In this document: positions 3,504 through 45,872 of the stretch, one piece after another
Numbering within the stretch: the first letter of the stretch is position 1
How the letters are laid out: the number at the start of each line of letters is the position of its first letter
From: an uncultured Chloracidobacterium sp.
Lineage (GTDB): Bacteria; Acidobacteriota; Blastocatellia; Pyrinomonadales; Pyrinomonadaceae
Assembly: GCA_964528325.1 (NCBI GenBank)
Contig: CAZGSC010000001.1
Location: 6,003 to 70,002 of the forward strand
Length of the DNA: 64,000 nt
Reading direction: 5' to 3'
Program-made: the position numbers and the translations under genes
Notes under the pieces: model-generated
Seen by the model: only the letters and a program-made list of their open reading frames with translations
Told to the model about the DNA's origin: nothing
Databases searched by the model: none

Positions 3504-4316
3504 ATGAGTCGGTGCAGATGGACGAGAAATGAAATGGGACCGCTTACGCAAATTATTAGGCTCACCATATTTATCCTGTTTGTTGGATGTACTGCATCGT
3601 TGGCCCAGTCTTCGTCAGCGGGGCCGCAGAATGAAGTTCAGTTTCGGGGCGATCTCAGATATCTATCTGGTGACGCGAATTTTTCGGGAAATAACGATTC
3701 AGGTTCAACCATCAGCTTTGGCGCGGATTTCAACCTCGATAGGTCGGTTGGCTACGATCTGCGATACGTACGCAGGTCAAAGAATGACAGGCACAAGTTC
3801 GTCGCCCATTTTAGCAGCTCCGACTGGGGCCGCTCGGCATCTTTAAGCCGTAATTTTACATTTTTGGGACATACCTATGTCGCACACTTAGAGATCGATC
3901 TCGATGTATCGCTCAAGACATTTGGCGGCTCTTATGCTTACCGCTGGGGAAATAAGAAAGTGCGTTTTGGGCCAAAGGTCGATGCGGGGCTCGTTAATGT
4001 TGGGGTAAAGCTAACAGGTACGACTACCTCCGGATCGGCAACTGCAAAAGGCACTATTAGAAAACCGGTCGCAACCGCGGGGTACGAATTTGAGGCTAAC
4101 CCGTCGTCAAAGGTGAGTATTTTTCACGAGTTGGGCGGGATAGTGTTTCAAGGGCAGCATGTTCTCAGTGTCGAAGGTGGGATCAAGTTCTCGCCGTTTC
4201 GGTATTTCGGCATAATGGGCGGGTACACATACCAGCGATACAAACTCATGAAGGACGATTCGCTTGTGGTTATCAGACAACAAGGACCATTTGCTGGGAT
4301 AGCTATTCGTTTTTGA
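3504..4316 (+). CDS. small outer-membrane beta-barrel protein
   Basis: It has a signal-like N-terminus (MGPLTQIIRLTIFILFVGCTASLAQS; the start could be 3504 or 3534). The body has an alternating beta-strand pattern and the C-terminus ends in aromatic ...GIAIRF, as in OMP barrels. Confidence 0.55.
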   Translation: MSRCRWTRNEMGPLTQIIRLTIFILFVGCTASLAQSSSAGPQNEVQFRGDLRYLSGDANFSGNNDSGSTISFGADFNLDRSVGYDLRYVRRSKNDRHKFVAHFSSSDWGRSASLSRNFTFLGHTYVAHLEIDLDVSLKTFGGSYAYRWGNKKVRFGPKVDAGLVNVGVKLTGTTTSGSATAKGTIRKPVATAGYEFEANPSSKVSIFHELGGIVFQGQHVLSVEGGIKFSPFRYFGIMGGYTYQRYKLMKDDSLVVIRQQGPFAGIAIRF

Positions 4317-4458
4317 ACACCTTAACAGGCCAGTCGGCACCCTTGGTCAATTGGGTCGGCGCCCGCGTACTTTACTAAACAGAGAGCCGATAAGGCATGT
4401 GTCACGAAATGCGGCGTACAATAGGCAACGTGGCAATTCAAGATCGAGGACTTAGATC

Positions 4459-6681
4459 ATGACTAGGAAATTCACTTTAGTTCTTTTTATCGCATTTCTT
4501 CTCTGGTTTCCGTGCAATGCCAATACTCAGAATGATCTGCCAAAGAAACGGCCGACCGTCGGACTGGTGCTGAGCGGAGGTGGTGCCCGCGGCTTTGCTC
4601 ATGTTGGTGTCTTAAAAGTTCTCGAGGCCAATCACATACCGGTCGACTATATTGCCGGGGCAAGCATGGGTGGACTGATCGGAGCTTTATACGCGATGGG
4701 GATGAGCCCCGAGGAGATGGAGAAGTTGATCGCACGGTTAGATTGGTCGCGGCTCTTACGCCCGTTGCCTGCTGTAGACGACCTGTCCTACCGGCGAAAG
4801 GAGGACCGTCTGAACATTCCGGCACCGCTCACGCTCAAGGGACAGGGTGCTGATCTAAAGCTGCCGAACGCTCTTAATACGGGTCATGAGATTGGCCTGC
4901 TGTTTGACCGATTGACGCTCCGGTATGCATCCGTTACCAATTTTGCCGATCTTCCGATACCATTCAGTGCGGTCGGAACTGACATGCTTAGGGGAGATGC
5001 AGTTGTGCTGAACACAGGTTCACTTTCTCGTTCCTTGAGGGCAACAATGTCGATACCGGGCGTGTTCGCACCGGTCAGCGTGGACGGCAGATACCTCTCC
5101 GACGGAGGCCTCGTAAATAACATTCCTACCGATATAGTCAAAGCGATGGGAGCCGATATCGTAATCGTGGTTAACATCGAATCGCAGATTGGTGGCCGCG
5201 AAGTGCTCGATAGCCTGCCAGGCGTTTTGTCTCAAACCATAAATATCTCAACGCTGGATAATTCACGCCGAAGCCTTCGGCAGGCGGATTTCATTATTGC
5301 ACCGGAACTGGGTGGGTATACGGCTGCGGATTTTTCCAAAAGCAAGGAGATCACCGAACTGGGTGTAAAAGGAGCCGAACAGAAGATGGCACTCCTTGGT
5401 TCTATCTCGCTCAATGACGCCGACTGGGCTGAGCACCTCGCTGCGCGGAGGAGGCGGCAGCTTCCCGATGTTGCCCCTATACCCGAATTGGTCGCGGTGG
5501 TTGGCGAGAGACCCGAATCGGCCGCGATGATAAAGCGAAAACTGGGCGATAAATATGACGGTCAGCCACTCGACGACAAAAGGCAGGACGCCCTTGCTAA
5601 GGACCTGTCAGAACTTACCGGCACTGAACGGTTTGATTCGCTCGGCTATCAGGTCGAAACAAAGCAAGGACGAAAGGAACTTGTTATCGGCTCAAACAGC
5701 ATCAATGGCCGGGCGTTTAAGCAAACCCGATTAGAACTCGGAATGGACGTAAACAGTGTCACATCCGACTCCCTGAATTTTAATTTGCTCGCCCGGCTAA
5801 CGTTCTTCGATGTCGGCAAATACGGTGCGGAATGGCGGAATGATGTTCAGATCGGCTCAAATTGGCTGTTTGCAAGTGAATATTTTCGGCCGCTCGGTCG
5901 AACGCGGTTCTTTCTTGCCCCGCGCCTGTCCTATGATCGGCACCCTGTCGATATTTTTACAGACGGTGACAGGGTCGCAAGGTATACCGCTCAGGATGCA
6001 AGGATCGGCATCGATGTGGGGTACGGCTTCAGCAGCCGAAATGAAGTTAGAGTTGGCTACGCCTTCGGGTACGAGAGCGACAACCGTCAGATCGGAGATC
6101 CGGTGCTGTCGAACATGAGCGGAACCTATAGTACGGCCGGCCTTCGGTGGACATACGACAGCCTGGACAATACAGTGATTCCGACCCGAGGCGTATTGTC
6201 GCGAAATTCAATCAACTATTATTTCAGGAGTCCTGGCGCGCACGGCAACTTAACACAAGCCGAAACGCGCACGAGTGCTTTCCATTCTATCGGTGACCGA
6301 AACATAGTGTTCGGATTTGGCGGTATCGGAAGTTCTTTTGGCGACGCGGCGCCGGAGCTTCGGCAATTTGCCCTTGGTGGATTGTTCCGTGTTGGCGGTT
6401 ATGGAACTGCGGAGTTTCGCGGGAGCAATTACCTGCATGGCGGCGCCGGCATTCTGAATAGCCCGAAGGCGTTTCCGACCATTTTGGGCAAAAAGATCTA
6501 CCTTGGAGTTTGGTATGAGGGCGGCAGCATCTATCAAAAGATCAGCACCGCAAAATACCTGCAAAGCGTTTCAGGCGGATCGATATTGGATACCCCGATC
6601 GGCCCGGTCTTCGTCGGCGGCGGAGTCAACGACAACGGTAATGGCCAGTTCTATTTTTCGTTCGGCCACATTTTCAGGTAA
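4459..6681 (+). CDS. patatin-like phospholipase fused to a C-terminal Omp85/surface-antigen beta-barrel (PlpD-like, type Vd secretion architecture)
   Basis: It has a signal peptide, then GLVLSGGGARGFAHVGVLKVLE and the GASMGG serine-lipase motif, then DGGLVNN (catalytic Asp region). The C-terminal ~300 aa are beta-barrel-like and end ...GQFYFSFGHIFR. Confidence 0.8.
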   Translation: MTRKFTLVLFIAFLLWFPCNANTQNDLPKKRPTVGLVLSGGGARGFAHVGVLKVLEANHIPVDYIAGASMGGLIGALYAMGMSPEEMEKLIARLDWSRLLRPLPAVDDLSYRRKEDRLNIPAPLTLKGQGADLKLPNALNTGHEIGLLFDRLTLRYASVTNFADLPIPFSAVGTDMLRGDAVVLNTGSLSRSLRATMSIPGVFAPVSVDGRYLSDGGLVNNIPTDIVKAMGADIVIVVNIESQIGGREVLDSLPGVLSQTINISTLDNSRRSLRQADFIIAPELGGYTAADFSKSKEITELGVKGAEQKMALLGSISLNDADWAEHLAARRRRQLPDVAPIPELVAVVGERPESAAMIKRKLGDKYDGQPLDDKRQDALAKDLSELTGTERFDSLGYQVETKQGRKELVIGSNSINGRAFKQTRLELGMDVNSVTSDSLNFNLLARLTFFDVGKYGAEWRNDVQIGSNWLFASEYFRPLGRTRFFLAPRLSYDRHPVDIFTDGDRVARYTAQDARIGIDVGYGFSSRNEVRVGYAFGYESDNRQIGDPVLSNMSGTYSTAGLRWTYDSLDNTVIPTRGVLSRNSINYYFRSPGAHGNLTQAETRTSAFHSIGDRNIVFGFGGIGSSFGDAAPELRQFALGGLFRVGGYGTAEFRGSNYLHGGAGILNSPKAFPTILGKKIYLGVWYEGGSIYQKISTAKYLQSVSGGSILDTPIGPVFVGGGVNDNGNGQFYFSFGHIFR

Positions 6682-7105
6682 TCGCAACGCGACTCGTCTT
6701 TTAACGTTCAGGACTGAATTCCACCGAGTGTGCCGTTGCTGCCCTGATCGTCCAAGCAATGGCGAATTTTGGCTCGATCGCTTTGTTAGTGCTTTACGCC
6801 GTGATTTTCGCAAAGAGTCAATTTGGAGAGTCTGTTGTAAAAACGATTCTAAGGCAGTTTTTCTTAGTATTTTGTACCTCATAGTATTGTTCGCGTCCGC
6901 AATGTTGATTAGGTTGATCGCTTCTTTGTTGGATAGGCTGTGAGAGAACCCGTAAGGCCGATAAAAAATCTGCCTCACCAGAACCTTTACTCACGGACCT
7001 CCAAAGTGAAGATCGACGATAAAAAACGCTGAGCAGTTTCGCAGCCAGACAGTGTTGTTATACCGACCAGAAGAGCTGGTCATTGAGAAAAGAGAGGAAA
7101 TCCTG

Positions 7106-8689
7106 ATGAACAATCATAATCGACAAACGCATATCAAATTCGTGCTTCTACTTTTGACTTTTTTGCTATTTGTATTGATCGGGGAGGGAGTGAAAGCTCA
7201 GAGCAGTGTACCAAATCTACTTAGTTACTCTGATCTTGTAACGCTTTACGAAAATGACAACCCACCGCAGCCGCTGCAAACTAAGCTGGATAATCTACTG
7301 AACGGCGTTTTCATAGACAATACTCTCAGCCCACGCGCCGCCGTCACTGCGCGCCGATCAAAAGGCCTCAACGTGGCGATGTGGAATATCGAACGCGGCC
7401 TCGAGTTTAAGGCTCTCAAGGCCGCTCTAACGCGTGACGAAAGATTCTTTCATCACATTCCAGATGCCGAGCGCTCAAAGAAATTTATCATCAAAGATGT
7501 AATCGCTGAATTGAAGCGCTTGAGCACTGCCGATATCGTCGTTCTAAATGAGGTTGATTGGGGGCTAAAGCGTACAGATTATCGGAATGTAGCAAGGGAG
7601 TTGGCGGTTGCCGCGAAGATGAATTACGCCTACGCCGTCGAATTTGTGGAAGTCGATCCGCTAACGCTCGGTACCGAAACACTGGAAGGGGAAAACAGCC
7701 GCGACAAAGGTGAAATGGTAAAACACCTGACGGTCGACAAGTCGCGCACCCTTGGGCTTCATGGCACTGCGATCCTAAGCAGGTTTCCGCTTCGAAACGT
7801 TCGAGTTATTCGCTTTAAGAACCTGGGACACGACTGGTATGCGGATGAAAAGAAAAAAGTCTCGGCGCTCGAAAAGGGTAAGCGAAAGGGTGCTGGTCTC
7901 GTCTTTAGTGAAAAGATCCTGCGTGAGGTTCGACGCGGTGGACGCATGATGATCCTCGCTGATATTGAAGATCAACGGCTTGAAGGTGGGATATTAACGG
8001 TGGTCGCGACGCACCTTGAGCAGAAAACAAAACCCAGCGAGCGAGTCAAACAACTGGAAGAACTGCTCACAAGTATAAAAGACATCAATCACACCGTAGT
8101 GGTGGCCGGCGACATGAATACCTCCGGCACTGATTCGACCCCAACGTCGTTCGAACGCGAGGTCAAGAAGCGAATGGGAAGTAGTTCGTACTGGGTGAAC
8201 AAGGGAATCAAGTATGCCACTGGAGTTGGTTTTCTTTATGACCTCACTTTCGGTTTGATTAAGGCTCAACGGACCAAAAGCGACCCCACCGTCAAGAGCG
8301 TTCGATTTGTATCGGAAAACCCGGAAGAAAAGTTCTTTACCACATTAAAGCAATTTCGGTTTTCCGATGGTAACGCCTTCGATTTCCGGGGCGCGAAGGA
8401 CTACTCTGTCGGTGGTAGCACGGCTACCTTGTCCGATTCCAACGAGCGGGCGTCGAAAGGATTTGTTAGCACTCTCGATCTGGAAGGGAAAGTTACCATT
8501 CGCTTGAAGCTCGACTGGATTTTCGTGAGACCGCCAAGACTTACAGATCCTGTTGACCGGGCGCAACCGTATTTGATGGCACCCCAGTTTGGCCGAACAC
8601 TAAAAGCTCTGAATTTCAGTCTAAAGGATCGTATCTCGGATCACAGTCCTCTAATAGTTGAACTGCCATTTAAGGAACGCGCGCAATAA
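7106..8689 (+). CDS. secreted endonuclease/exonuclease/phosphatase (EEP) family protein
   Basis: The start is taken at MNNHNRQTHIKFVLLLLTFLLFVLIGEGVKAQS, after a GAGAGGAAA run. EEP motifs are present: NVAMWNIERG, VVLNEVDWG, VATHLE, GDMNT and a terminal SDHSPLIVEL. Confidence 0.75.
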   Translation: MNNHNRQTHIKFVLLLLTFLLFVLIGEGVKAQSSVPNLLSYSDLVTLYENDNPPQPLQTKLDNLLNGVFIDNTLSPRAAVTARRSKGLNVAMWNIERGLEFKALKAALTRDERFFHHIPDAERSKKFIIKDVIAELKRLSTADIVVLNEVDWGLKRTDYRNVARELAVAAKMNYAYAVEFVEVDPLTLGTETLEGENSRDKGEMVKHLTVDKSRTLGLHGTAILSRFPLRNVRVIRFKNLGHDWYADEKKKVSALEKGKRKGAGLVFSEKILREVRRGGRMMILADIEDQRLEGGILTVVATHLEQKTKPSERVKQLEELLTSIKDINHTVVVAGDMNTSGTDSTPTSFEREVKKRMGSSSYWVNKGIKYATGVGFLYDLTFGLIKAQRTKSDPTVKSVRFVSENPEEKFFTTLKQFRFSDGNAFDFRGAKDYSVGGSTATLSDSNERASKGFVSTLDLEGKVTIRLKLDWIFVRPPRLTDPVDRAQPYLMAPQFGRTLKALNFSLKDRISDHSPLIVELPFKERAQ

Positions 8690-9114
8690 GCTGTTGGTGA
8701 GGTCGGATCAAATGTAGATCGGGCGTCCCAGATGCTACTGAACCACTGATCCTCGCCCCGAGAGTTTACCTGACTCTTAGCTCCCGGCTACTAGATCTTG
8801 CTTGTCTGCAAAGAGTGCGATCTCGGAAACATGGTGGAGGCGATCAAGTTTGTTTGCGTGGAAAATTAGGAACACATTCCTGACGGCCGCTCACTGACTT
8901 CGATTCCGAACCTCTTTCCTCGAGCGTCAGGGTTTCGCAGCGGTTGAAATCTGACAAAAAAACGTTCTTGCCGCGCGAAAATATTTGCAACAAACCGCGG
9001 ATTTTTGCATACCTCATATCTCCCCGTTTCGCGATAAATCAGGGCGACACTCACGGCACGCGATTTGCCAATTATGCGTTCAAGAAAAAGCTACTTCGGC
9101 TCGAATGCCGGCAC

Positions 9115-9225
9115 TTCGGTGCCGTGGGCGGGTACACCTACCAGCGGTACAAACTCGTGACCGACGACTCACTCGTGGTCATCAGACAACAAAGACCAAT
9201 TATTGGAATAACCTTTAGCTTCTGA
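9115..9225 (+). pseudogene. displaced 3'-end fragment of the beta-barrel OMP gene (paralogous to 4206-4316)
   Basis: FGAVGGYTYQRYKLVTDDSLVVIRQQRPIIGITFSF* aligns with FGIMGGYTYQRYKLMKDDSLVVIRQQGPFAGIAIRF* at the end of 3504-4316. That is 26 of 36 residues by my count, and both end at a stop. Nucleotide similarity is visible. The upstream sequence is unrelated. Confidence 0.7.
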
Positions 9226-9593
9226 ACGAGTTCTTAACACACTCGCCACAACAGATCTTTCCGGGTCAGGAAAGAACGTTCACGTTTCGATAGATTTTCT
9301 CGACGCATGCATATTGCTCGTTTGCGTAGACAGCGACATTCAAGCCGCGGGCCGGGCGAATCCCTTAATTGTCTGAGGCAAATTTTGTGCAAGTTCCGCA
9401 TCTGCACAAAAATAGGTCCGAATTAGGTAATTTTTGTGCAAAGCCTCCGTATGACTCAAATACAGCAGGTTTCGTTTTACGTCGTGTGAGTGCGCCAATG
9501 GTGTGCCAACTGATAGAAACTGTTCAAATGGCGACAATCTGAAGCAATCTCGGATCTGCTGAAAATCCAAATAAATCAATCATTTACAAACTC

Positions 9594-9653
9594 GCTCAAA
9601 CTAGAGCAAAATGCTCTGTCAAGATTCGTAATCGAAAGGTCGTCGGTTCGAAT
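9594..9653 (+). pseudogene. degenerate tRNA-like remnant (D-arm plus TTCGTAA anticodon-like loop plus T-arm 5' half; tRNA-Thr(CGU)-like)
   Basis: GCTCaaactaGAGC looks like a D-arm. ATTCGTAATCGAAAGGTCGTCGGTTCGAAT closely resembles the anticodon-loop-to-T-loop portion of bacterial tRNA-Thr(CGU). Extra bases sit between the arms, and there is no complementary T-stem 3' half or acceptor stem, so it cannot fold as a tRNA. Confidence 0.35.
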
Positions 9654-9700
9654 TTGCTATATAGAAAATCGGCTAATATTGAGTAGACGTATAAGCACTC

Positions 9701-10183
9701 CTAAGTCCAATAATTGCGGTCGAGAGAACGGTAATTGATCGCTTCGCTAATATGAGTTGGCCGGATGTTCTCGCTGTTGTCGAGATCGGCTATGGTACGT
9801 GAGACTTTCAAAATGCGGTCATGCGCCCGAGCGGATAAGCCCTGACGGAGCATTGCCTTTTCGAGGAGTTCTTCGCTCTGTGTGTCGAGAGCGCAAAAAG
9901 TACGGATCTGTTTTGGCGACATCGCAGAGTTCGAGAAAACGCCGTCACCATTGAATCGTCTTAGCTGTATCTCGCGTGCCTTAACAACTCGTTCGCGGAT
10001 CACTTCCGAGCTGTCGCCTTCCGGAACTCCACGGCCTCGGAGCTCATTAAACTTAACGGCGGGAACGTCGATATGAATATCTATCCTGTCCAGTAACGGC
10101 CCCGAGATCTTGCCGACGTAGCGTTGTATCTCAGCAGGAGAACATCTACATTCCCGAGAAGAACCGAAGTAGCCACACTTACA
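9701..10183 (-). pseudogene. displaced 3'-end fragment of comM/yifB (last 160 codons plus stop)
   Basis: [50 protein letters not shown]...[13 protein letters not shown] aligns end to end with the last 160 aa of the intact comM at 36681-38243, with 10 substitutions by my count. Similarity stops abruptly 5' of TGTAAGTG and 3' of the stop codon. The 18 upstream codons in the track ORF are unrelated. Confidence 0.85.
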
Positions 10184-10191
10184 CCCCTGCG

Positions 10192-10662
10192 TTGACAAGA
10201 TGCCATTTTGGCATAATCGGCTCAAAACCACCTGCACACGTTATTACCGCAAGACCGTATCCTTATGATCCAAATACGTTAGGTGATTATTTACGGAAAC
10301 GGAGGCTTGATCTGAACCTAACTCAAAAACAACTCGCAGAAGACATATTGCACACGTCTACCTCCAACATCAGAAATTGGGAAGCAAATCGCCGTCAGGT
10401 ATCATTATGCTTCCGGCCCCAGGTTTATGAGTTTATCGGTTTTTTTCCTTGTGATGTTTCGCTCCGACTTGGACTGAGATTGAAACAACGGAGAGAAAGC
10501 CTTGGGCTTTCGATTAGGAAATTGTCTAAGATTCTTGGAGTTGATGCCTCCACAATTGAGAACTGGGAAGACGGCAAACATCAGCCATCCGCCCAAAATC
10601 TACAAACCATCGAATGTTTCCTGGGGTCGTACTTCTGGACGGGATTTGTCGAAAATCAATAA
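10192..10662 (+). CDS. XRE-family transcriptional regulator with two helix-turn-helix (HTH) domains
   Basis: It has two Cro/C1-type HTH units: LGDYLRKRRLDLNLTQKQLAEDILHTSTSNIRNWEANRRQVS and LGLRLKQRRESLGLSIRKLSKILGVDASTIENWEDGKHQPS. The start codon is uncertain. Confidence 0.65.
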   Translation: MTRCHFGIIGSKPPAHVITARPYPYDPNTLGDYLRKRRLDLNLTQKQLAEDILHTSTSNIRNWEANRRQVSLCFRPQVYEFIGFFPCDVSLRLGLRLKQRRESLGLSIRKLSKILGVDASTIENWEDGKHQPSAQNLQTIECFLGSYFWTGFVENQ

Positions 10663-10720
10663 ATGACAGGTTCCGAATTCGCCCATTCGATAGCCAGTCA
10701 TAGAATCATCAGCCGAGCAA

Positions 10721-11869
10721 TCATTTCCCGCTTGCTTGGCCGTAACTGTTGGTCGTTGGCTCGGCGGTTTCTTCGCCGACCTCGCAATAGACCTTTATCA
10801 CGCCCTTTGCGTTCGTAAGGACGTCGAATAGTTGAGCGTGGTTTTCGAGACCGGCAACCGGATGCGTCAATAGACGGGAGAGCCAATCACCGTATTCGAG
10901 AACGGCCTGTGCCATGTCCTTTGCACCGGTCTCAAAATATTCTCGATTTGCGTTGACCGTGCCGATCATTACCTTGTTGCCGAGCACAAAATCGAGATTG
11001 ATCTTGTCGGCCGGAACTTCAACCATGCGATCGCCGCCGGTTACGCTGGAAAGTACGAGAATGCCGTTTTTCGCGAGAGCCTGCATGGCGTCAAAAACGA
11101 TCGGTGAAAAGCCGGTCGCTTCAAAAATAATGTCAAACCCGCCATTTTGAGCGGCATATTGCGGCACGGTAACATCGGCCGTTGAGACATATTTCGCCCC
11201 CAACGACTCTATGAGATCCGAATTGAGGTAAGGCTTCGCCGTGCGGCCAAAGGTAACAACTTCCATACCGCGAAGCCGGAAAACGAGCGTTGCCAAAAGA
11301 CCTATAGTTCCCGCCCCCATGACGGCAGCCCGCTTTGGTTTCCAAACGCGCAGGCGACGTTGCGTCTCGAACGCCTGTGTAATTCCCTTTTGAACAACCG
11401 TCATTGGTTCGAGCAAAACGCCTACATCTTTTAGTCCGCGCGGAATTTTGACGATAAACTCTGCGTCATCAACGTAATACTCGGACAGATAACCGTGACG
11501 AAGATTGATGCCACGTTCAAAGTATGTATCGTCCGTCGTCATGTCGTTCGTGCCAATGACATCGTAGATGCTCGTGCCGGGACGGCGGACTGTCGCAACG
11601 ACATAATCTCCCTTTTTCAGTTCTGTGACATTCAGCCCGACTTCCTCGACCACGCCAAAGCCTTCGTGTCCGATCACGAGAAAGTCTTCGCCGATCGGTG
11701 CCGCACCGTACTCGGCGTTGTTGATCTCTTTGTCGGTGCCGTCAACACCTACGCGCAGAACTTTAACAAGAACACCTCGCCCGTTCGGAATTTCTCCGAT
11801 CTCCGGTTTTGGCATTTCGACAAGATGTGCCGAGTTTTTGATCCCTGGTTTAACTGCTATTGCTTTCAT
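10721..11869 (-). CDS. zinc-dependent medium-chain dehydrogenase, glucose 1-dehydrogenase-like
   Basis: MKAIAVKPG...[17 protein letters not shown]...IGHEGFGVV...[12 protein letters not shown] (Rossmann GxGxxG). The overall layout resembles archaeal-type glucose dehydrogenases of the MDR family. Confidence 0.65.
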
Positions 11870-11925
11870 AATTATTATCTTTTATATCTGTGCTTCAACT
11901 GCGTGGCTAAAACGCAACTCTTACT

Positions 11926-12894
11926 CTATGCAGCTAGTGCCTGCATCCATTCGGTTTGGACTCCCAAATTTGCCAGCGTACCGACAACTCTTTCAGGTTC
12001 ACCCCAGTCACACCAACCGACGTCGCCGACACGCATAACGAGTAGCTCGTCTGAAGAGTTTTCGAGCACTTCGCTGGAGAAATTTGTGTCTTCGATCCAA
12101 GAATAGATTGATCGGATCACGGCAGATTCCTGGCTTGTTCCAAAGAGCTTAGATGCCGCTGCAAACATGCGAAACATTTCCGGCAAACGTTTTTTAAACA
12201 TATTAAGAAAGGTCTCGGCCTTGCCGACCATCACAAAGCTGTTCCACATACATCCATCGGCCATCAGCCTTTCGGCAACTCCGTGTGTCGGCTTTTCCCA
12301 AAACCGGTTGACACGGCTGACGGACTTTGCCATGTCACCGAAGAATGAACTGGCAGGCTCGATCCAACCGTATGACGTCTCGGCCTTTTCCGGTTCTATG
12401 CCAAGCAGAACAATCGACTGTTGATTGAATCCAGCTGTTCGAAATGCCGCTTCGACGTGATCCATAAACGAAGAGTCGTTTGAAAAATAATGATCTGACG
12501 GAAAAAAAGCGACCGTTGCATCCGGCGACATTTTTGCAAGACGCATCAGGCTGTAGAGTATCGCCGGTGCGGTTCCGCGATTCTCTGGCTGGACGACCAT
12601 TTGCGAGCCCGGCACGTTCCAAAGCGGGCGCTCGTAATATCGCTCATGTTTCTGCGTCAGGCTGAAAAATGTGTTTTCCGGCCGGATACGCATAGCGGAT
12701 CGGTTTCTTGTCTTATCAAGAAGGGTTTCGTTGCCCAGTATCGGACAAAATTGTTTTGGGCGTTCGTCACCGGCTATCGCCCGCGTTAGTGAACGAAGAC
12801 GTGTTCCATCGCCGCCTGCCAAAATTATTGCGTGCCGATTGGCTTTATTTGCAGCAAATGTTTTGAAATCTCTGACTGTGGTTTTGAACTTCAT
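11926..12894 (-). CDS. sugar-phosphate nucleotidyltransferase (mannose-1-phosphate guanylyltransferase-like)
   Basis: The N-terminal signature is AIILAGGDGTRLRSLTR...ERPKQFCPILGNETLL. Confidence 0.7.
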   Translation of the reverse strand: MKFKTTVRDFKTFAANKANRHAIILAGGDGTRLRSLTRAIAGDERPKQFCPILGNETLLDKTRNRSAMRIRPENTFFSLTQKHERYYERPLWNVPGSQMVVQPENRGTAPAILYSLMRLAKMSPDATVAFFPSDHYFSNDSSFMDHVEAAFRTAGFNQQSIVLLGIEPEKAETSYGWIEPASSFFGDMAKSVSRVNRFWEKPTHGVAERLMADGCMWNSFVMVGKAETFLNMFKKRLPEMFRMFAAASKLFGTSQESAVIRSIYSWIEDTNFSSEVLENSSDELLVMRVGDVGWCDWGEPERVVGTLANLGVQTEWMQALAA

Positions 12895-33316: not shown

Positions 33317-34981
33317 ATGCCCGACTTTTTACAAACCTTTCAACAAAGCGTTCCGGAATTATCCGCGGCCGCTTTGTTCTTTCTGTTCTTCTTTGGCACG
33401 TTTGTCAGCGAAGATGCTGCGTGTCTCGCCGCAGGAGCGACAGCGGCAAACGGCAGTATTGGATTTGCATCTGCATTAACGGCGTGTTTTCTCGGCATTT
33501 TTGCGGGTGATCTTTTGCTGTATGCGGCCGGCCGTGTGTTTGGAGATAGGATCTTCGAAAACCGTCTCGTGCAGCGGTTCGTTTCGGATGAGACAAAAAC
33601 AAAAGCCTCAGTATGGCTCGATAAGAACGGAGCTACGGCTGTGTTTCTTTCGCGTTTTGTGACTGGCCTGAGACTTCCCACATATCTCGCGGCCGGCGCA
33701 CTGCAGACCGATCTTAGAAAATTTGTGCTTTATTTCCTGCTCGCTTCCGCAATCTGGACGCCGATACTCGTTGGAGCGGCAACATTTACGCAACTTGGCA
33801 TTTTCCGACAGCACGCGATCGCTGGATTGATCATTATCGCTCTGGTCATTCGGCTGGCACTCAAATATTCATCACGAAAAAACCGTCGATTGCTCGTTGG
33901 GCGAATAAAGCGGATCGTGAATTGGGAATTCTGGCCGATACAGCTCTTTTACGCACCTGTAGTTCTATACGTGATCGGTCTCGCGTTCAACCACCGCAGC
34001 CTGACTGCCTTTACAGCGGTCAATCCCGTAATGCCGGCCGGCGGATTTAAGGGAGAATCGAAAAATGACATATACGAGCTGTTAAAAAAATCTGATGTTG
34101 CTCAGCCTTTTATGTTACGGCACAAACTATTCAGCTTAACTGAACCTGTTGCGGAAAAGGTGCTTCAGGCGCAACGTCTCATTGACGAACATCATTTGAA
34201 CTTTCCGCTGGTGCTCAAACCCGATGCCGGAGAACGCGGCAAGGACGTTCGTTTTGTCGGCTCATTCAACGAACTGGAAAGCGAGATCGCAGTGGCTAAA
34301 ACCGACCTCATTCTGCAAGAAAGTGTGTCTGGTGAAGAGATCAGCATTTTTTATTATCGTTACCCTGGTGATGTAAATGGCCAAATCTTTTCGATCACCG
34401 AAAAGGATTTTCCGTCTGTTGTTGGGGACGGACGCTCAACGTTGGAGGAGCTTATCCTGAACGACCAGCGTGCGGTATGTGTTGCCGAAAAATACTTCGA
34501 ACAAAATCGCGAACGGCTCGATAAGATTCCTGCCGCGGGCGAAGACGTGCAACTGATCGGCATCGGAACACATTCGCTCGGAGCTATATTTCTCGACGGT
34601 GACTGGCTAAAAACTGGCGCTCTGGAATCGAAGATCAATGACATTTGTCGCGGATCAGACGGATTTTATTTCGGACGCTTCGATATTCGGGCACCCACAT
34701 TTGCTGATATTCAACGGGGTGAGAATTTTAAGATCATCGAACTAAACGGCGTCACAAGTGAATCGACCAACATCTACGACCCGCGATATTCACTTTTTGA
34801 CGCATATCGGATTTTGTTTCGTCAGTGGCGAATAGCGTTTGAGATCGGTGCCGAAAACATTAAACTTGGAGCCAGTAGGACGAGCATTTTGGATCTTGCG
34901 AAACTGACTTTTGGGCTGGACATAGCGATGAAAAGACCAATCTCGATCGCAAATTTGAAACAGACAGACCAATGTGCGTGA
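33317..34981 (+). CDS. DedA/SNARE-associated membrane domain fused to a C-terminal ATP-grasp ligase domain
   Basis: The N-terminal ~200 aa are DedA-like (FFFGTFVSEDAACLAAG...GDLLLYAAGRVFG...FLSRFVTGLRLP). The C-terminal ~300 aa are ATP-grasp-like (FPLVLKPDAGERGKDV...LQESVSGEEISIFY...FKIIELNGVTSEST). Confidence 0.65.
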   Translation: MPDFLQTFQQSVPELSAAALFFLFFFGTFVSEDAACLAAGATAANGSIGFASALTACFLGIFAGDLLLYAAGRVFGDRIFENRLVQRFVSDETKTKASVWLDKNGATAVFLSRFVTGLRLPTYLAAGALQTDLRKFVLYFLLASAIWTPILVGAATFTQLGIFRQHAIAGLIIIALVIRLALKYSSRKNRRLLVGRIKRIVNWEFWPIQLFYAPVVLYVIGLAFNHRSLTAFTAVNPVMPAGGFKGESKNDIYELLKKSDVAQPFMLRHKLFSLTEPVAEKVLQAQRLIDEHHLNFPLVLKPDAGERGKDVRFVGSFNELESEIAVAKTDLILQESVSGEEISIFYYRYPGDVNGQIFSITEKDFPSVVGDGRSTLEELILNDQRAVCVAEKYFEQNRERLDKIPAAGEDVQLIGIGTHSLGAIFLDGDWLKTGALESKINDICRGSDGFYFGRFDIRAPTFADIQRGENFKIIELNGVTSESTNIYDPRYSLFDAYRILFRQWRIAFEIGAENIKLGASRTSILDLAKLTFGLDIAMKRPISIANLKQTDQCA

Positions 34982-35697
34982 TATATTTGGCTTTCAGCCA
35001 ACATCCGGATCATCCGCTGATATTACTTGCCAACCGGGACGAGTTTTATGACCGGCCATCGCAGGCCGCGAGGTTTTGGGATGATCTTCCGAACATATAC
35101 GGCGGACGTGATCTGGTTGGCGGCGGCACATGGCTAGGCGTCACCAAAGGCGGCAGGTTTGCAGCGGTGACTAATTATCGCGATCCGTCGGCTCCGATCG
35201 GTATACGATCGCGCGGCAATTTAGTCGCTGATTTTCTCAAATCCAACGAGCGAGCAAACCATTATTTAGGGCAAGTAAAAACCGTATCGAACGAATATTC
35301 AGGCTTTAACCTGATCGCCGGCGAACTTTCCAGCGGCAGGCATGAACTTTTTTATTACTCAAATCGCGGAAATGATGTCCAAGAACTCGGTCCCGGGATA
35401 TATGGCCTGAGCAATCATCTCCTCGATACTCCTTGGCCAAAAGTCGCGAAAGGTAAGGTCCAATTCGCCAACCTACTAAGCAATGGCCATTTTTCTCCGG
35501 AGGAATTGTTCGAAATTCTCGCCGACGAATCTCTCGCCGACGACAAAAATCTGCCCTCAACGGGCGTACCTTATGAGACAGAGAAAGCTATCTCCGCAGT
35601 ATTTATCAAAACACCCGGCTACGGCACCCGTTGCTCGACTATACTGACTTTCGATAATAATTTTGATTGGAAATTCGAGGAGCGGGTATTTGTTTGA
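34972..35697 (+). CDS. NRDE-family (TANGO2/DUF833) protein
   Basis: It starts MCVIYLAF...LILLANRDEFYDRP (NRDE motif) and continues GGTWLGV, FAAVTNYR. It overlaps the upstream gene by 10 nt. Confidence 0.75.
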   Translation: MCVIYLAFSQHPDHPLILLANRDEFYDRPSQAARFWDDLPNIYGGRDLVGGGTWLGVTKGGRFAAVTNYRDPSAPIGIRSRGNLVADFLKSNERANHYLGQVKTVSNEYSGFNLIAGELSSGRHELFYYSNRGNDVQELGPGIYGLSNHLLDTPWPKVAKGKVQFANLLSNGHFSPEELFEILADESLADDKNLPSTGVPYETEKAISAVFIKTPGYGTRCSTILTFDNNFDWKFEERVFV

Positions 35698-35699
35698 GG

Positions 35700-36518
35700 T
35701 CAGGAAAACATCCGTCGGTATTTTTCGTTCATCCTTCGCACGTCAAACACCACAAAAAAATCGATTGTACCAAATTGGCGGTCGATCATTGGCGGGCTGC
35801 AGACTCGGGCTCCGAGACGGAGATACATATTGAAAAGAGCAGGCAGGTCAACATCGTTCTCGTCCGCTGTATCAGTCACACATAGACCATTACGAAGTGG
35901 CTTGACCGTCAATTGTTCGTGAAAATATCCTTCACGGGAAAGTTGGCGAAATGCCTTTCTGCCTGTCTCAGGATTTGCGTCAAAGATCGAGCAGCAGCCA
36001 AAAAAATATCGTTTGCCGGTGTGTTCAAGATACGCCAGAAGGCCCTTCCATAATAGAAAAAGCACTTTCGTGTTTCGGTGGTCTTTTGAAATACAGGCCC
36101 GGCCGATCTCAATGCCGTGCCGCAGCACGTCCTTCGGTAAGTCTTCGATCGTAAACTCGCTCGCTGAGTAAAAGCCGCTTATGGAGCCCGCGGATTCGAG
36201 TGTGTTCAGGCGATATGTGCCTACAGTCAAACCGGTGTCACGATCGATCACGATCAAATGCCGACATTTGAAATCGTAGGCGTCGAATTCCAGCCGAGAG
36301 TCGGTGGGCTGCGCCGTTTCACCGCCAAGCTCAACAGTGAATACTTCATGGCGAAGCCTAAGCGCCGTGGCCACTTCGCCTGCATTTCTTGCAAGACGGA
36401 CTTCATACCGCCCCGATTCGATCAAAGGAAAATCGTCCGCAACACGTTCAACAGAAACGCGCGGTCGGTGTTTGAAAACTGGTTTGGTTGATACGCGGAT
36501 CTTACCTAGAGCTTGCAT
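35700..36518 (-). CDS. GNAT-type N-acyltransferase (OlsB / hemolysin-like N-acyl amino acid synthase family)
   Basis: LRHEVFTVELG...DAYDFKCRHLIVIDRDTGLTVGTYRL...GIEIGRACISKDHRN...LWKGLLAYL is typical of the Acetyltransf_5 family. Confidence 0.6.
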   Translation of the reverse strand: MQALGKIRVSTKPVFKHRPRVSVERVADDFPLIESGRYEVRLARNAGEVATALRLRHEVFTVELGGETAQPTDSRLEFDAYDFKCRHLIVIDRDTGLTVGTYRLNTLESAGSISGFYSASEFTIEDLPKDVLRHGIEIGRACISKDHRNTKVLFLLWKGLLAYLEHTGKRYFFGCCSIFDANPETGRKAFRQLSREGYFHEQLTVKPLRNGLCVTDTADENDVDLPALFNMYLRLGARVCSPPMIDRQFGTIDFFVVFDVRRMNEKYRRMFS

Positions 36519-36680
36519 AGAAATTCAACGATACGCATTGGTGATCGTAGCCCAGTTAGTAGATTTAAGTTTCACACTCACTGCCTCGTTGGTTGTATCC
36601 CTAGTCACGAGAAAACTATTCCGCAAAAAACGATCACTCCGTTGCAAATGTTACATATGAACGCCGATTTGAGAATGTAG

Positions 36681-38243
36681 CTAAGTCCAATAGTTTCGGT
36701 CGAGCGAGCGGTAATTGATGGCCTCGCTAATATGGTTGGGCTGGATGTTTTCGCTGCCGTCCAGATCGGCGATGGTGCGTGAGACCTTTAAGATGCGATC
36801 ATGTGCCCGCGCGGATAAACCCTGACGGAGCATTGCCTTTTCAAGCAACTCTTCGCTCTGCGAGTCAAGAGCGCAGAATGTGCGGATCTGTTTAGGAGAC
36901 ATTGCCGAGTTTGAAAAAACTCCGCCGGAACTGAATCGTCTTAGCTGTATTTCGCGTGCTTTGACAACTCGTTCGCGGATCACTTCCGAGCGATCGCCCT
37001 CCGGCACACCGCGGCCACGAAGTTCATTGAACTTAACGGCGGGTACGTCGATGTGAATATCTATTCTGTCCAATAGCGGTCCCGAGATCTTGCCGACATA
37101 TCGCTGTATCTCAGAGGGCGAGCATTTACATTCGCGGGATGAGCCGAAGTAGCCGCACTTACAAGGATTCATAGAGGCTACGAGTGTAAAGTTCGCCGGA
37201 AAGGTCAACGAAGTTGCAGCACGAGAGATCGTGACCGTCTTGTCTTCCATCGGCTGGCGCAAAACCTCGAGAACGCTGCGGTCAAATTCCGGTAATTCGT
37301 CGAGAAACAAGACCCCGAGATGTGAGAGAGAAACTTCACCCGGTTTAGGTATCGAGCCGCCGCCGATCAGTCCTGCCTGCGAAACGGTATGATGCGGCGA
37401 TTTAAATGGCCGCTCAATGATCAAACCTGCTTTACCAGTTAGGCCTGCGACAGAGTGGATCTTAGTTATCTCTATTGCCTCTTCAAATTCCAGGGGCGGC
37501 AGAATGGTCGGCAAACGCTTGGCAAGCATCGTCTTGCCCGAACCCGGCGGGCCGATAAACAGGATGTTGTGGCCGCCCGCGCTGGCGACCTCGAGAGCCC
37601 GTTTAGCGGTCTGCTGGCCGCGCACCTCGTTAAGATCCACACGATATTTGTTCTCGCGGGAACTCAAATCCGAAATATCGAGCCTCAGCGGCCTGACGGC
37701 AGTTTCGCGTCCTGTTTGCAGGTCTTGCGACAGTTCTGCCGCTGTGCGGAGATCTTTGACCGGAAAGACATTGATGCCGTTGACGACTGCTGCTTCGGTC
37801 GCATTTTCGTCTGGAAGCAGCAGGTTTTTAACGCCGGCCTCACGAGCTTTTAGAGCGATGGATAAGGCTCCGCGAACAGGCCTCACTCGTCCGTCGAGCG
37901 ACAATTCGCCTACGCTCATCGTTTGCTGCATACTGTCGATCCCAAGATCGCCCGCCGCACCAAGAATCGCCAAAGCAATGGGCAGATCGAAGGCCGCTCC
38001 CTCTTTGCGGACGTCGGCCGGAGCAAGGTTGACGGTGATCTTTTGGATCGGGAAAAAGTAGCGGCTGTTCGTGATCGCTGCGCGGATGCGCTCGCGCGAC
38101 TCGCGGATAGCAGTATCCGGCAAACCGACTACGGTAAAGTTTGGAGACTGGTCGTTCTCAGCGCTCGGACGCAGGGCAACCTCGATGTCCACAACCAGAG
38201 CATCGATGCCGTACACGGTCGCCGATTGCGAGAGGAAAAGCAT
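36681..38243 (-). CDS. comM: YifB/ComM Mg-chelatase-like AAA+ ATPase, full length
   Basis: It is 520 aa. It has an N-terminal Lon-protease-like ChlI domain, the Walker [19 protein letters not shown], and the C-terminal ...[15 protein letters not shown] typical of the family. Confidence 0.85.
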
Positions 38244-38742
38244 AGACTAATTCGATATTTGAAAAAAGATTATTTGCAGTCTAGCATCGTAATTTTCAAA
38301 TGTCGATATATTGTCGTCGTTAACTTTTTCCGCTCATCCCGACCTTTCGTGTCCCAAGCTGTCTCACTGCCCGAGCGAAACGCGCAACTTACTGTTTTTA
38401 TTAGAGTTGCGACGTTTTTGGCCCTCCGTTTCGCGTTTTTTGAGAAAAAATAACACATTGTGTCACACAATTTGCAATTGTTGTAAGTAATGCACTTACT
38501 TGTTTCACTTGTTCGCGGCACAGCGATCTTCGCTGAGACAAGCTTTCCACCAAAACAACGATACCCAGTCGCTACCGCGCCTGGGTTCTGACACCTTCAT
38601 TTTCAACTTTCCACTATTCACTACATTCGTCCCGCACCAACCTAACGCACTTTAGAACAAATTGGAATACTAACCTTCTCGATATGACGCAATTTTCTCG
38701 ATTTGACGTAACTTTCCGACTTTGGCAGCCGGCCCATTTTCA

Positions 38743-38770
38743 TTGACTTACGAGCAAAAGGGGATATAAT
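38743..38770 (+). promoter_or_regulatory. sigma70-type promoter candidate for the giant surface-protein gene
   Basis: TTGACT (38743-38748), a 16-nt spacer, then TATAAT (38765-38770). It lies about 140 nt upstream of the ATG at 38909. Confidence 0.5.
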
Positions 38771-38908
38771 GCTCGGCAACTCTCAGATGTATTTGTGAGG
38801 CAAAAAAAGACGGATTTTTTGTATTTCTGGCAATATTTCACCAGTTCTTACGCATAAACAAATGAAAAGGCAAAAGGCAGAATTATTACGATCCGGCGGA
38901 GCGATGTT

Positions 38909-41900
38909 ATGCGAGAAATGAGATATGCGATAGGTTTGGCGGCTGCGGCAGTTATTGTAGTTATGGCTCTTAATGTTCTGATCCGTAAGGTTGAAGGGCA
39001 AACAGTGATCAGCCCGGCTGATAACACTTCAAATATTGAGTCAAACGAGCGAACACCGACGCCGAGCGGTGAAATACCGGACGAATATCCGGAACAGAAT
39101 TCCCTTTTCCCAGTTGTCGGCCAAGCAGATACCGAGAATCCAATTTCACCGCTCTCAGAGGTAAAGCTGGCTGCTTCGGACGGAGCCGCAAACCATCGAT
39201 TCAGCGAATCGATTGCGATCTACGGGGATACAATCGTTGTCGGAGCGCCTGGCTCTTCGGTTGGTGGCGTGAACCAAGGTGCTGCGTATGTTTACGTCCG
39301 TGACGGATCGAATTGGGTGTTACAGCAGAAACTGACCGCCTCAGACGGGGCGGTGGGCGATAGGTTTGGCACGGCGGTCGCCATTTTCGGTGACACTGTG
39401 ATAGTTGGTGCGCCCTTTGATGACGTTGGTTCCACGTCTACCAACCACGGATCGGCGTACGTCTTTGTGCGAAATGGGACAAACTGGACCGAGGTACAAC
39501 ACCTGATACCGAGCAACAGCCAGCTAGACGCCCATTTTGGTTTCTCGGTTGCGTTGTATGGCGACAAGATGGTGATCGGTGCTCCAAGGCACATCCAGAC
39601 CATTATCAATCCGCAGAGGCGAACGGGCGTAGCATACTCGTTCATTAAGAGCGGTGCGAGTTGGGTCGAACAGCAGATTTTAACGCCGAGTGATTCAACG
39701 CTCGATAACGAGCGATTCGGGGATCGAGTCACCATGTCCTCAGATACTGTCGTCGTCAGCTCACCTGAGAAAAGTATAAATGGAAATATCATACAGGGCA
39801 TCGTGTCGGTTTTTGTTTCAAACGGAGGCTCGTGGACAGAACAGGCTGTCTTGACCGCAAATGACGCCCGGAACTTTGGTAGAGGTATTACGATAACGGG
39901 CGATGTCCTGATCGTTGGTGCTCCCACTTCCACGGCCCAATTCAGCAACCAGGGAGCCGCCTATGTTTTTGCCCGCACTGGCACGAGTTGGGCGCAGCAG
40001 CAGAAACTTACAGCGAGCGACGCCCTGGCAAGCGCCGGTTTCGGGTACGCCGTGTCGATGATTGGAAACACCGTTGTTATTGGAGCATGGACGATGAACA
40101 TCGGAGCCAACAACCTTCAGGGAGCGGCTTACATTTTCAGAGACAATGGTGTTTCCTGGACTCAGCAAACGCGAGTGACTGCCGCGGACGGTGCTGCGAG
40201 TGACCGGTTTGGCTCCTCTGTAGGCCTCACTGACAGCTGGGTTGTAATTGGGGCGGTTGAGGATGACATCGGTGCGAACGGCAACCAGGGCTCGGCATAC
40301 GTTTTTAACCGATGCGAGATCGGCGCACGCGGGGAATCGGCCGCAGGCGCACAGTGCGAGTCTGAGATCATCGTTAATACTACTGGCGACGAGCCTGATG
40401 AGGATACTAGCGATACTGAGTGTGATGTCGATGAAGCATCGAGCGGACTACAGTGCACCCTGCGCGCCGCCATACGGGTCGCCAACGACCTGGCCGGCCC
40501 TGACACGATCAAGTTCAACATCCCCGGCAGCGGCGTCCAAACGATCGCACCCGCAACCGCTCTGCCCAATATCACCTCAAAGGTCACCATCGACGGGACC
40601 TCACAGCCGGGCTATTCCGCCTCACCGTTGATCGAGATTCAAGGCTCTCTAGCAGGGAACGGCGTGAACGGGCTCGTCTTCTTGGGAGCAAGCAACCAGT
40701 CCACCGTCAAGGCCTTGACGATCAATCGTTTCGAGCAAGCAGGCGTGTTATTCCAAAGCTCGGAAAATCGCATCGAAAATTCTTGGATCGGGCTGAGTGC
40801 TGACGGCTTGTCTGCCGGGTCACCTGTCCAAGGGGCTGGTGTCCGGATTCTCAGTGCAGACAATCATGTCGGCGGGGCCAGAAATGGCGCTGCCGCAAAT
40901 AACCTGATCGCGGGCAACGCTGTCGCACAGGTTTTTTTGGAGACACTAAATGCAACGAGGAACAAGATCAAAGGAAACAATATTGGTCTAAACGTCAGCG
41001 GCATCCCTCCAGAAGGTAATTTCTTGACGGGGGTTCTTTTGCTGCAAGCCGGTTCGAACAACACGATCGGAGGAAATACCGCTGCGGATATAAACATAAT
41101 TACAGCGGATGCCACTGGGATTTCTATCGATAATACTGAGGCCTTCGACAATCAAAACACCATCGCTGGAAATCGAATACTCGGCTGCGGCACGGGCGTG
41201 TCGATAGTCAATTCTGGCGGCAACACAATCGGCGGCGATTTTGGTGCAGGCAGTAACCATATCGGAGGTAACTCAAGTTTCGGAATTACGATCGATGACA
41301 CTGTTGACGAAGCGTTAGCTTTCTTGGTCGATGAGAACAAGGTGTTTGGAAACCTCATAGGCATTTCGCCCGAGTATCAGATGTTCGGTAACGGTACGGG
41401 AGTCGGAATAATTAAAGGAACCAATAATTCAATAGGAAGCGGTCAGCCGCAACATCGCAATATTATTAGTGAGAATTCAAGTGCGGGCGTCGGGTTGAAC
41501 CCCGGTGCGAAATTGAATTTGGTGCTGGGAAACTATGTCGGTACTAATGCCGATGGGACTTCGGAAAGCGGAAACGGATCCGGCGTGATGATTCGAGGAA
41601 ATCAAAACACCGTTGCCGGTAATTTGATCTCGGGTAATCAATACGGAGTCAGTGTCCAAAGTTTCGAAACGAATCCCGCACCGCTCGGTAACACAGTTCA
41701 GAGCAATCGTATAGGGCTTGCAGCGTCTGGTGACGAGGAGATTTCAAATCAAATTGGAGTTTTTCTTCTCGAAGGAAAAACGATAGTTACTGGAAACACG
41801 ATTTCGGGAAATACAGCCGAGGGAATTCTTATTCTAAGCAACGAAAATACTATAACAAGCAATATGATCGGCACGGACGTGACCGGCAATTCTGCGGTGG

Positions 41901-44041: not shown

Positions 44042-44245
44042 TCCAAAATGCGTAAGAGCCTGCGGCTGACAGTTTCTCGTCACCACCTTTGCTAAATGGC
44101 TCAGTGGATTGATCGCTCTGCTCTGAGGTCTATAACCTTACGGGGGCTTGCCTCGTATTGTTTTGAGTATTCTGTCCTTTATTTATACAATTAGGTTTAT
44201 GGAATTAGCGATGATCGGCCAGCCGGCCGACAAAGCGAGGAATCG

Positions 44246-45782: not shown

Positions 45783-45800
45783 TGCAGAAGCCGACGCAAT

Positions 45801-45842: not shown

Positions 45843-45872
45843 AAGGTGCGACTTCCGGATATCAAGATGATT

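Follow-up and report, generated by a model that had tools for sequence, protein, structure and literature searches.

A 64,000-nucleotide (nt) stretch of DNA from an uncultured Chloracidobacterium sp. (assembly GCA_964528325.1, contig CAZGSC010000001.1, positions 6,003–70,002 of the forward strand; hereafter the window) contains an intact gene for a small outer-membrane protein (OMP), an intact comM, and a short segment in which displaced 3′ ends of both genes face each other. The segment of interest spans window positions 9115–10183, and the displaced-end region is read as 9106–10183. Its best reading is a former convergent OMP/comM chromosomal junction, as the original prediction had proposed. 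The explanation favored here, judged only somewhat better than even in probability, is that the junction was opened by two insertions, each carrying a replacement 3′ end for the gene it entered, and that the comM event was site-specific and belongs to a recurrent class.

Comparison of the window with itself by blastn identified two duplications that bear on the junction; the others were only short repeats at ~2.0–2.2 kb. Positions 9701–10183 aligned without gaps to 36681–37163 over 483 bp with 84.1% nt identity (E 6e-149). This duplication begins exactly at the stop codon and comprises the last 160 codons plus stop of comM, with 94% amino acid identity between the copies. On the OMP side, 9125–9227 aligned to 4216–4318 over 103 bp with 80.6% identity (E 3e-20), and similarity at the protein level reached to ~9106 (RHFGAVGGYTYQ versus RYFGIMGGYTYQ). 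The two tails converge across 475 bp (9226–9700), at the coordinates originally given, and the ends of the intact genes (4316 and 36681) are 32.4 kb apart, in agreement with the earlier figure of about 32 kb. The order is A–a′–block 1–a–spacer–c–block 2–c′–C, with both fragments in cis, both oriented like their intact genes and with sharp boundaries. Direct repeats resembling attL/attR bracket both inserts (483 bp at 84%; ~103–120 bp at 81%).

The intact genes were also identified correctly at the outset. The gene at 36681–38243(-) encodes a full-length YifB/ComM (TIGR00368, 611 bits versus a cutoff of 362) with Lon-like (PF13541), AAA+ Mg_chelatase (PF01078) and Mg_chelatase_C (PF13335) domains. 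The gene at 3504–4316, with a weak match to TIGR04219, belongs to a family of small beta-barrel outer-membrane proteins (~260 residues), homologues in which carry PF13505. The features of the locus, read according to the favored explanation, are as follows.

3504–4316, plus strand: intact beta-barrel OMP gene, whose last ~36–40 codons (~4197/4216–4316) are the putative replacement tail.
4319–9105, no strand: putative inserted block 1, with a patatin-Omp85 gene, a gene of the endonuclease/exonuclease/phosphatase (EEP) family and 416 bp of non-coding DNA (by Pfam).
9106–9225, plus strand: displaced OMP 3′ end of ~40 codons (blastn core 9125–9227), decaying.
9226–9700, no strand: putative old convergent intergenic spacer, GC content 0.43, with hairpins, TTTGTGCA copies and a 48-nt element.
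9701–10183, minus strand: displaced comM 3′ end, 160 codons plus stop from Cys361 of the CxCGYFG zinc-ribbon motif; open reading frame (ORF) intact.
10184–10662, plus strand: end of putative block 2, an 8-nt conserved linker (CCCCTGCG) and a gene (10192–10662) for a tandem helix-turn-helix (HTH) protein.
10663–36680, no strand: block 2 cargo of ~22 metabolic and regulatory genes.
36681–37163, minus strand: putative replacement comM 3′ end, fused in frame to the resident 5′ part (37164–38243), resulting in a 520-residue ComM.

In the proposed sequence of events, DNA would have been inserted into each gene near its 3′ end, with the intergenic spacer and its hairpins retained between the two sites. 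Each block would have brought its own gene 3′ end on the side facing the resident 5′ part, leaving both genes intact, and the original 3′ ends would have been displaced to the far ends of the blocks, facing each other across the old spacer. The comM event is predicted to be a recombination between an attP site (HTH end, core and element-borne comM tail) and the conserved site in comM. The recombinase would not be, or would no longer be, encoded in the block; the most concrete candidate is a large serine recombinase acting together with the HTH protein. The OMP event (block 4319–9105) would have had the same architecture and would be the older of the two.

The comM break falls directly before the first Cys codon (Cys361) of the CxCGYFG motif, and the TTG start of the HTH gene is 9 nt from it. 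The same junction was found in eight loci, all identical in layout (...CxCGY in antisense, YYCCYGCG, then the TTG of the HTH start): the window, two metagenome-assembled genomes (MAGs) from NCBI (L095 and L113), four contigs from metagenome collections (L096, L097, L098 and L104) and one from JGI (L114). Among short ComM C-terminal ORFs collected by a search with the 160-residue fragment, 18 distinct clusters (90% identity) shared a non-ComM N-terminus, ..(N/D)GIL(S/A)T(Q/R)xC.CGYF, corresponding to the start of the HTH gene read in antisense. In HTH ORFs that gene callers had extended upstream, the added peptide fitted the predicted antisense of C-x-C-G in 11 of 24 evaluable cases.

The two sides of this junction differed in what was shared among loci. 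In an all-against-all comparison of the element-side flanks, the HTH gene was the only common element, and its neighbors ranged over FG-GAP, RHS and toxin genes, ankyrin proteins and a TnpB. Along the tail-side flanks, the only common gene was a host AMP-binding gene, present after the truncated tail in L095 and L098. Because the AMP-binding gene stands beside the truncated tail and only the HTH gene is shared on the opposite side, the tail side is taken to be host and the HTH side inserted. Recurrence of the junction at native comM loci favors the first of the two origins initially offered, insertion of two blocks, over the second, capture of a small piece of a relative's locus.

Similarity to the window was discordant between the two halves of the junction: the L095 tail was 86% identical and its HTH gene 44%, and in L097 the values were 79% and 63%, respectively. 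This pattern fits separate insertion events, as judged from sequence comparison, rather than one inherited scar. Two points favor site-specific recombination for the comM event: a single fixed breakpoint in divergent hosts, and the disagreement between the histories of HTH gene and tail.

The HTH gene product is a 156-residue Xre-type protein with two HTH_3 domains. An exhaustive search for the tandem-HTH family returned 863 representatives at E<1e-10, many of which begin M/L-P-F-C-H; in some members the number of HTH repeats rises to 10. Among the top 150 representatives, four (P0170, P0179, P0283 and P0287) are large serine recombinases in which the tandem-HTH module is C-terminal to Resolvase and Recombinase domains, with or without Zn_ribbon_recom. 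These fusions are the only lead to an enzyme, and an indirect one. A perfect palindrome, ATGCCATTTTGGCAT (ATGCCA-TTT-TGGCAT, 10200–10214), overlaps the first codons of the HTH gene and may be an auto-operator; it is present in L096, and not in L095, L097 or L098.

Divergence of the two comM tails was analyzed for the copy in the intact gene (Ti, 36681–37163) and the displaced copy (Tf, 9701–10183). They differ at 77 positions, distributed 8/7/62 by codon position, with dN 0.036, dS 1.08 and dN/dS 0.034 (nonsynonymous and synonymous substitution rates and their ratio) and with no indel or stop. When polarized against 16 relatives, four derived amino acid changes were assigned to Ti and five to Tf. 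Since the differences are mainly at third positions, indels and stops are lacking and the rates are symmetric, the tails must have diverged as working genes, in two sister lineages. In Tf, no decay after its separation from the gene was measurable.

The displaced OMP end has a different history. Ten of 36 residues are not shared with the intact tail (dN/dS 0.20), and the family-invariant GPF...RF of the C-terminal strand, retained in the intact gene, has become RPI...SF. The loss of family-invariant residues shows that the OMP fragment is decaying; of the two displaced ends, it is probably the older. OMP homologues are rare (18 matches, none above 50% identity other than the gene itself, in unrelated contexts), and for the exact OMP and HTH proteins there was no prior record.

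Features of the spacer fit an ordinary convergent intergenic region and support an intact old junction. A hairpin follows each tail, at 9256–9275 after the OMP tail and at 9596–9612 (AGAGCA-TTT-TGCTCT) after the comM tail; the latter has a compensated counterpart in L112, a comM-tail locus described below. Together with the order and orientation in cis and the undecayed comM tail, these hairpins make a 3′-3′ junction that predates the insertions the best reading of the segment. A 48-nt element at 9606–9652(-) corresponds to L112 10550–10596 (38 of 47 bases identical ungapped; 87.5% by blastn). In both genomes it lies downstream of a comM tail, with the compensated hairpin next after it, and it may act as a terminator or as part of a 3′-UTR. 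A homologue of the whole spacer was found in none of the fetched loci except the same-strain contig L094.

Two further elements had been described in the spacer. The TTGTGCA-repeat hairpin is real; three of the four TTTGTGCA copies in the 64 kb fall within 57 bp (9384–9391 +, 9403–9410 - and 9433–9440 +). The degenerate tRNA-like sequence did not hold up: ARAGORN found no tRNA, Rfam gave none at E≤10 (8690–10260 and L112), and a tRNA remnant was rejected, the resemblance being limited to a T-loop-like GGTTCGAAT motif inside the conserved 48-nt element. The three copies at 9384–9440, written as TTTTGTGCA(A), are two direct and one inverted, and this cluster may be a binding array for a regulator.

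Contexts of comM were compared among relatives in the organism group (Pyrinomonadaceae/'Chloracidobacterium', Acidobacteriota). The window ComM was 79–85% identical to the best matches in species-representative genomes and up to 92% identical to metagenomic proteins. Synteny among the relatives covers the 5′ side of comM (redoxin, NFACT and RDD-family genes); gene content on the 3′ side varies. A gene for a 609-residue AMP-binding (acyl-CoA-synthetase-like) protein follows comM in the same orientation in nine loci. In L011, which would represent the empty state at the family level, the two genes are immediate neighbors; in L001–L004, L008 and L009, 0.8–5.8 kb of variable genes lie between them. 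At the family level, the ancestral neighbor of comM is thus the AMP-binding gene and not the OMP gene.

The test set with the original prediction, OMP/comM adjacency in relatives, failed: such adjacency was found in none of 13 Pyrinomonadaceae/'Chloracidobacterium' genomes and in no context of an OMP homologue. Since comM is followed by the AMP-binding gene in nine of these relatives, the adjacency is at most lineage-specific. In L001, an antitoxin/toxin-like pair (11726–12342; 89 and 116 residues; PemK/MazF-like by eye) occupies the 0.8 kb that separate comM from the AMP-binding gene, a further sign of small insertions accumulating there.

Displaced comM tails with other breakpoints were also found. 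In L006 (9375–10767), the intact comM is followed after 1.1 kb by a 47-residue tail whose breakpoint is at residue 474; a single unannotated ORF stands between the two. In L112 (JADJTD010000001.1, a Chloracidobacterium sp. MAG; 9980–10843), a comM tail starting from residue 373 is followed by a convergent 50-residue C-terminal fragment of an FG-GAP/cohesin protein, a second 'fossil 3′-3′ junction'. L112 is on the same 4.15-Mb contig as L095, 53 kb upstream of the L095 HTH/comM-tail junction, an arrangement that suggests tandem islands at comM. A further class of truncated ComM has its breakpoint at residue ~295 (seven clusters: P0050, P0071, P0072, P0074, P0079, P0083 and P0084) and reads ..SYSF(A/T)PTSGG, then SIPKPGEV. 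In the A. baumannii contig L115 (1–120), comM homology starts at the same residue ~295, after a Tn7-like end (reverse complement of TGTCATTTACAGC...). This coincidence suggests that Tn6022-like comM-targeting transposons also occur in Acidobacteria. With these several breakpoints, the 3′ half of comM is a multi-site hotspot.

Giant FG-GAP genes also seem to move around the comM locus. In the window, a 1710-residue FG-GAP/NosD/cohesin/dockerin gene (38909–44041, +) lies between comM and the redoxin gene, which are directly adjacent in L004, L009 and L012, and C-terminal fragments or homologues of its product adjoin comM tails in L112 and L114.

Gene content of the blocks was examined with Pfam, PHROGs and NCBIfam on all large ORFs from 1 to 44 kb and on six ORFs from 45 to 63 kb, with gaps inspected. 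Block 1 encodes a patatin-Omp85 protein (4459–6681, +) and the EEP-family enzyme (7052–8689, +). Block 2, including the replacement tail, spans 27 kb (10184–37163). Its cargo includes genes for an alcohol dehydrogenase (ADH), an NTP-transferase, GH63, a glyoxalase, a GMC oxidoreductase, an aquaporin and a subtilase; two extracytoplasmic function (ECF) sigma factors with anti-sigma factors, NDH-2, a sigma-54 activator and a gluconolactonase; and a spondin-domain protein, DedA/VTT, TANGO2, GNAT and others. No ORF in either block, and none of the six from 45 to 63 kb, matched an integrase, transposase, resolvase, serine recombinase or phage function, and tblastn with four large-serine-recombinase catalytic domains gave no match in the window or in any fetched locus. 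An integrase adjoining the junction was considered and rejected, as Pfam identified 10721–11869 as the ADH, 7052–8689 as the EEP enzyme and 4459–6681 as patatin-Omp85.

GC content, overall and at third codon positions (GC3), was uniform over the window (0.50–0.53) with the exception of the HTH gene (0.44) and the spacer (0.43). Only the structure would mark the two blocks as accessory; they are not compositionally foreign and carry no mobility genes. A prophage origin was also rejected: neither the HTH gene nor the comM tail had a confirmed IMG/VR match, and the GenBank 'phage' matches to the comM tail that were checked (H1 and H6) were chromosomal, being a full-length comM (L116) and the A. 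baumannii chromosome (L115). Matches in plasmid collections, seen in the hit table only, were mostly megabase-sized chromosome-like records or annotated full YifB genes. Elsewhere in the window, imperfect direct repeats of ~83 bp (86%, 108-bp offset) were noted at 2017–2207, within a DUF3300 gene (1174–2493).

Several observations weigh against site-specific insertion of two blocks. No recombinase was found in either block, in the rest of the window, or within at most 10 kb of the HTH end in L095, L098, L101 and L113. Both blocks match their flanks in GC and GC3 and their genes are typical chromosomal genes of the clade; only the HTH gene deviates. Inspection of the inferred att sites revealed no dyad symmetry and no terminal or inverted repeats. 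A genome with the uninserted OMP–spacer–comM state was not found among the 13 relatives, in the contexts of OMP homologues or in the ComM searches. Nor could the native tail be picked out: Ti is closest to Tf and Tf to Ti, and every other tail is equally distant from the two. Identity at the nt, third-position and amino acid levels to 16 relatives and 120 full-length ComM sequences gave no discrimination, and GC3 was equally uninformative. The contig of the closest relative of Tf, L114, stops 84 bp past the stop codon. Lastly, the coding part of L112 is closer to Ti (87% nt), yet its downstream 48-nt element matches the Tf side. This points to mosaicism among tails, which the simple two-insertion model does not predict; a sliding-identity test for mosaicism along the window's HTH–tail block against six loci gave no signal.

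The leading rival is Campbell-type, RecA-dependent integration of circularized sister-species DNA that carried a partial 3′ end of comM or the OMP gene, with duplication of the tail as the result. The HTH/tail junction would then be a join internal to the element, spread by descent, with the tail refreshed by each host. The failure to find a recombinase gene anywhere, together with the native composition of the cargo, keeps this a serious rival, although it is considered unlikely overall. The donor tails, at 84% nt identity, have the divergence of a sister lineage; the other breakpoints (residue 474 in L006, residue 373 in L112, the FG-GAP fragment in L112 and the OMP gene) indicate that tail duplication in the clade is gene-agnostic; and the mosaic of Ti-like and Tf-like segments in L112 would be accommodated. 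It is opposed by the breakpoint itself, shared to the exact nucleotide where the HTH genes are only 39–63% identical (L095, L097, L098, L113 and L104), and by the disagreement between the HTH and tail phylogenies. L104 is the only locus with a fully aligned tail as little as ~51% identical to that of the window, and RecA-dependent recombination with so foreign a tail would be inefficient there. The longest stretches identical in Ti and Tf measure ~17–28 nt.

It is improbable, though less so than the readings taken up below, that the HTH gene and the truncated ComM ORF form a selected two-gene module, for example a regulator with a stand-alone zinc-ribbon/lid-domain protein, and are more than a scar. 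All 10 HTH-linked tails seen as DNA, including the more distant L101 and L105 with less clear junctions, are uninterrupted, have an in-frame start 5–50 codons upstream, and in many assemblies are called as genes of 165–217 residues. Fragments from different genomes show low dN/dS (window versus L096, 78% nt and 89% amino acid identity), Tf has no excess of derived changes, and the pair is kept as one 930-bp block, at 79–81% nt identity, in L096 and L114. However, low dN/dS is equally expected for gene ends that worked until recently. The tails follow the resident comM of each host (84–94% identity) and form no separate paralogous clade; the fragments lie at comM's own chromosomal position beside the AMP-binding gene; and among tails of another class there is a decayed, frameshifted example (P0107).

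Illegitimate capture of a single piece, consisting of the OMP tail, spacer, comM tail and HTH gene, into a native 31-kb interval was the second of the original options and is very improbable. Positions 9106–10662 do have a lower GC content (0.47, and 0.44 in the HTH gene) than their surroundings (0.50–0.52), and the surrounding 31 kb looks native. This reading would nevertheless require two illegitimate joins, as well as the coincidence that both tails landed, correctly ordered and oriented, between the intact genes to which they correspond, and in L095 and L098 the HTH/tail junction is found where comM natively lies.

A chimera of two co-occurring strains created in assembly or binning is scarcely credible: the source is probably metagenome-derived and the matching ENA contigs have low coverage (~1x, per contig names), but neither 9105/9106 nor 10183/10184 has homology across the join, both junctions recur in the independent SPAdes contig L094, and the identical HTH/tail join is found in many unrelated assemblies. 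Indeed, all four junctions were reproduced by contigs of other assemblies with 99.9–100% match. L094 (ENA ERZ15185498, 4.3 kb) covers 7998–12293, including both outer boundaries of the displaced-end region; L082, L083 and L084 cover the intact OMP gene and the patatin gene after it, with L082 and L083 confirming the OMP–patatin junction; and L081 covers 33366–46628, including intact comM and its downstream genes, and confirms the replacement-tail junction. As there is no sequence similarity across the outer joins (~9105/9106 and 10183/10184), an assembler had no basis for mis-joining them. L094 (582–591) differs from the window (11679–11712) by a short replacement or indel in the 5′ part of the ADH gene (10721–11869), which is strain variation or a local assembly difference.

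Insertion with a replacement gene end, the preferred reading, has counterparts among known systems. Islands and prophages that enter gene 3′ ends and bring a replacement end include those that target tRNA and tmRNA genes and SCCmec at rlmH. As in these elements, the target gene survives intact, the insert is flanked by an imperfect direct repeat, and one exact breakpoint recurs; L011 may show an empty site at the family level. Unlike them, the repeat here is unusually long at 160 codons, neither the insert nor the vicinity of the conserved end contains an integrase or excisionase, the cargo is compositionally native, and the gene at the end encodes a tandem-HTH protein. Large-serine-recombinase elements integrate inside genes, such as A118 in comK and SPbeta in spsM, and resemble the present case in the sharp breakpoint, attP/attB identity of only a few bases, a target in a conserved coding motif, and the tandem-HTH module fused to such recombinases in other proteins. 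They differ in that neither the window nor the fetched HTH loci contain a serine recombinase and in that the known examples split their gene and do not supply 160 replacement codons.

Integrative mobile elements exploiting Xer (IMEX) rely on the XerCD of the host and on an HTH activator, for example XafT (VC1465 family). They likewise lack a recombinase of their own and have a small HTH protein at the element end. The match of the window HTH protein to the NCBIfam VC1465 family was below threshold (36 bits versus a cutoff of 70) and no better than to generic Xre models. Unlike the IMEX target, the target here is a coding motif of comM and not a dif site, and no dif-like sequence was evident.

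Integration at the 3′ end of a protein-coding gene is known for SGI1-type islands, which use trmE (PMC8409611). In Acinetobacter, comM is disrupted by AbaR/Tn6022-type Tn7-like transposons (Croucher et al. 2016, PMC4774983), and integrase-bearing comM elements occur in Aggregatibacter, Mannheimia, Francisella and Pseudomonas (PMC4774983). Such comM-splitting elements are thought to block transformation (PMC4774983). The class described here resembles them in its target gene and in insertion positions that are both conserved and orthologous across distant hosts. Unlike AbaR/Tn6022, it would rebuild comM with an element-borne tail, so that transformation need not be lost. Tn7-like hallmarks were absent: there were no Tns genes or Pfam matches, no TGT...ACA ends and no shared inverted repeat, and comM is unsplit. 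A limited literature check found no description of a tail-replacing or HTH-marked comM class. The type of scar is known; the HTH-marked comM variant, with the gene kept intact and no integrase, appears to be undescribed.

As a tentative extension, unlikely as it stands to be right in full, the tandem-HTH gene might mark a widespread and undescribed class of comM-targeting islands that insert at the zinc-ribbon codons, have no recombinase of their own and use one supplied in trans, for example a large serine recombinase that the HTH protein recruits, or by the host. The same exact breakpoint and small HTH gene do recur in many uncultured Acidobacteria without an accompanying recombinase. For annotation, displaced comM ends explain the many short 'ATP-binding / Mg-chelatase family' ORFs called in soil MAGs. 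If the event is site-specific, it would involve an unrecognized recombinase–target pair that reads a near-universal coding motif, with possible use as an integration tool. If it is homologous recombination, conserved gene ends would serve as docking arms through which tens of kilobases are swapped between sister species.

comM encodes the helicase that drives branch migration in natural transformation. The inserted DNA described here would repair the gene it entered, the opposite outcome to that of the disruptive comM elements. If the tandem-HTH gene does mark such a class, the 160-codon replacement C-terminus would keep the competence helicase functional, and the 3′ third of comM would be a modular docking site for the exchange of chromosomal cargo among related Acidobacteria.

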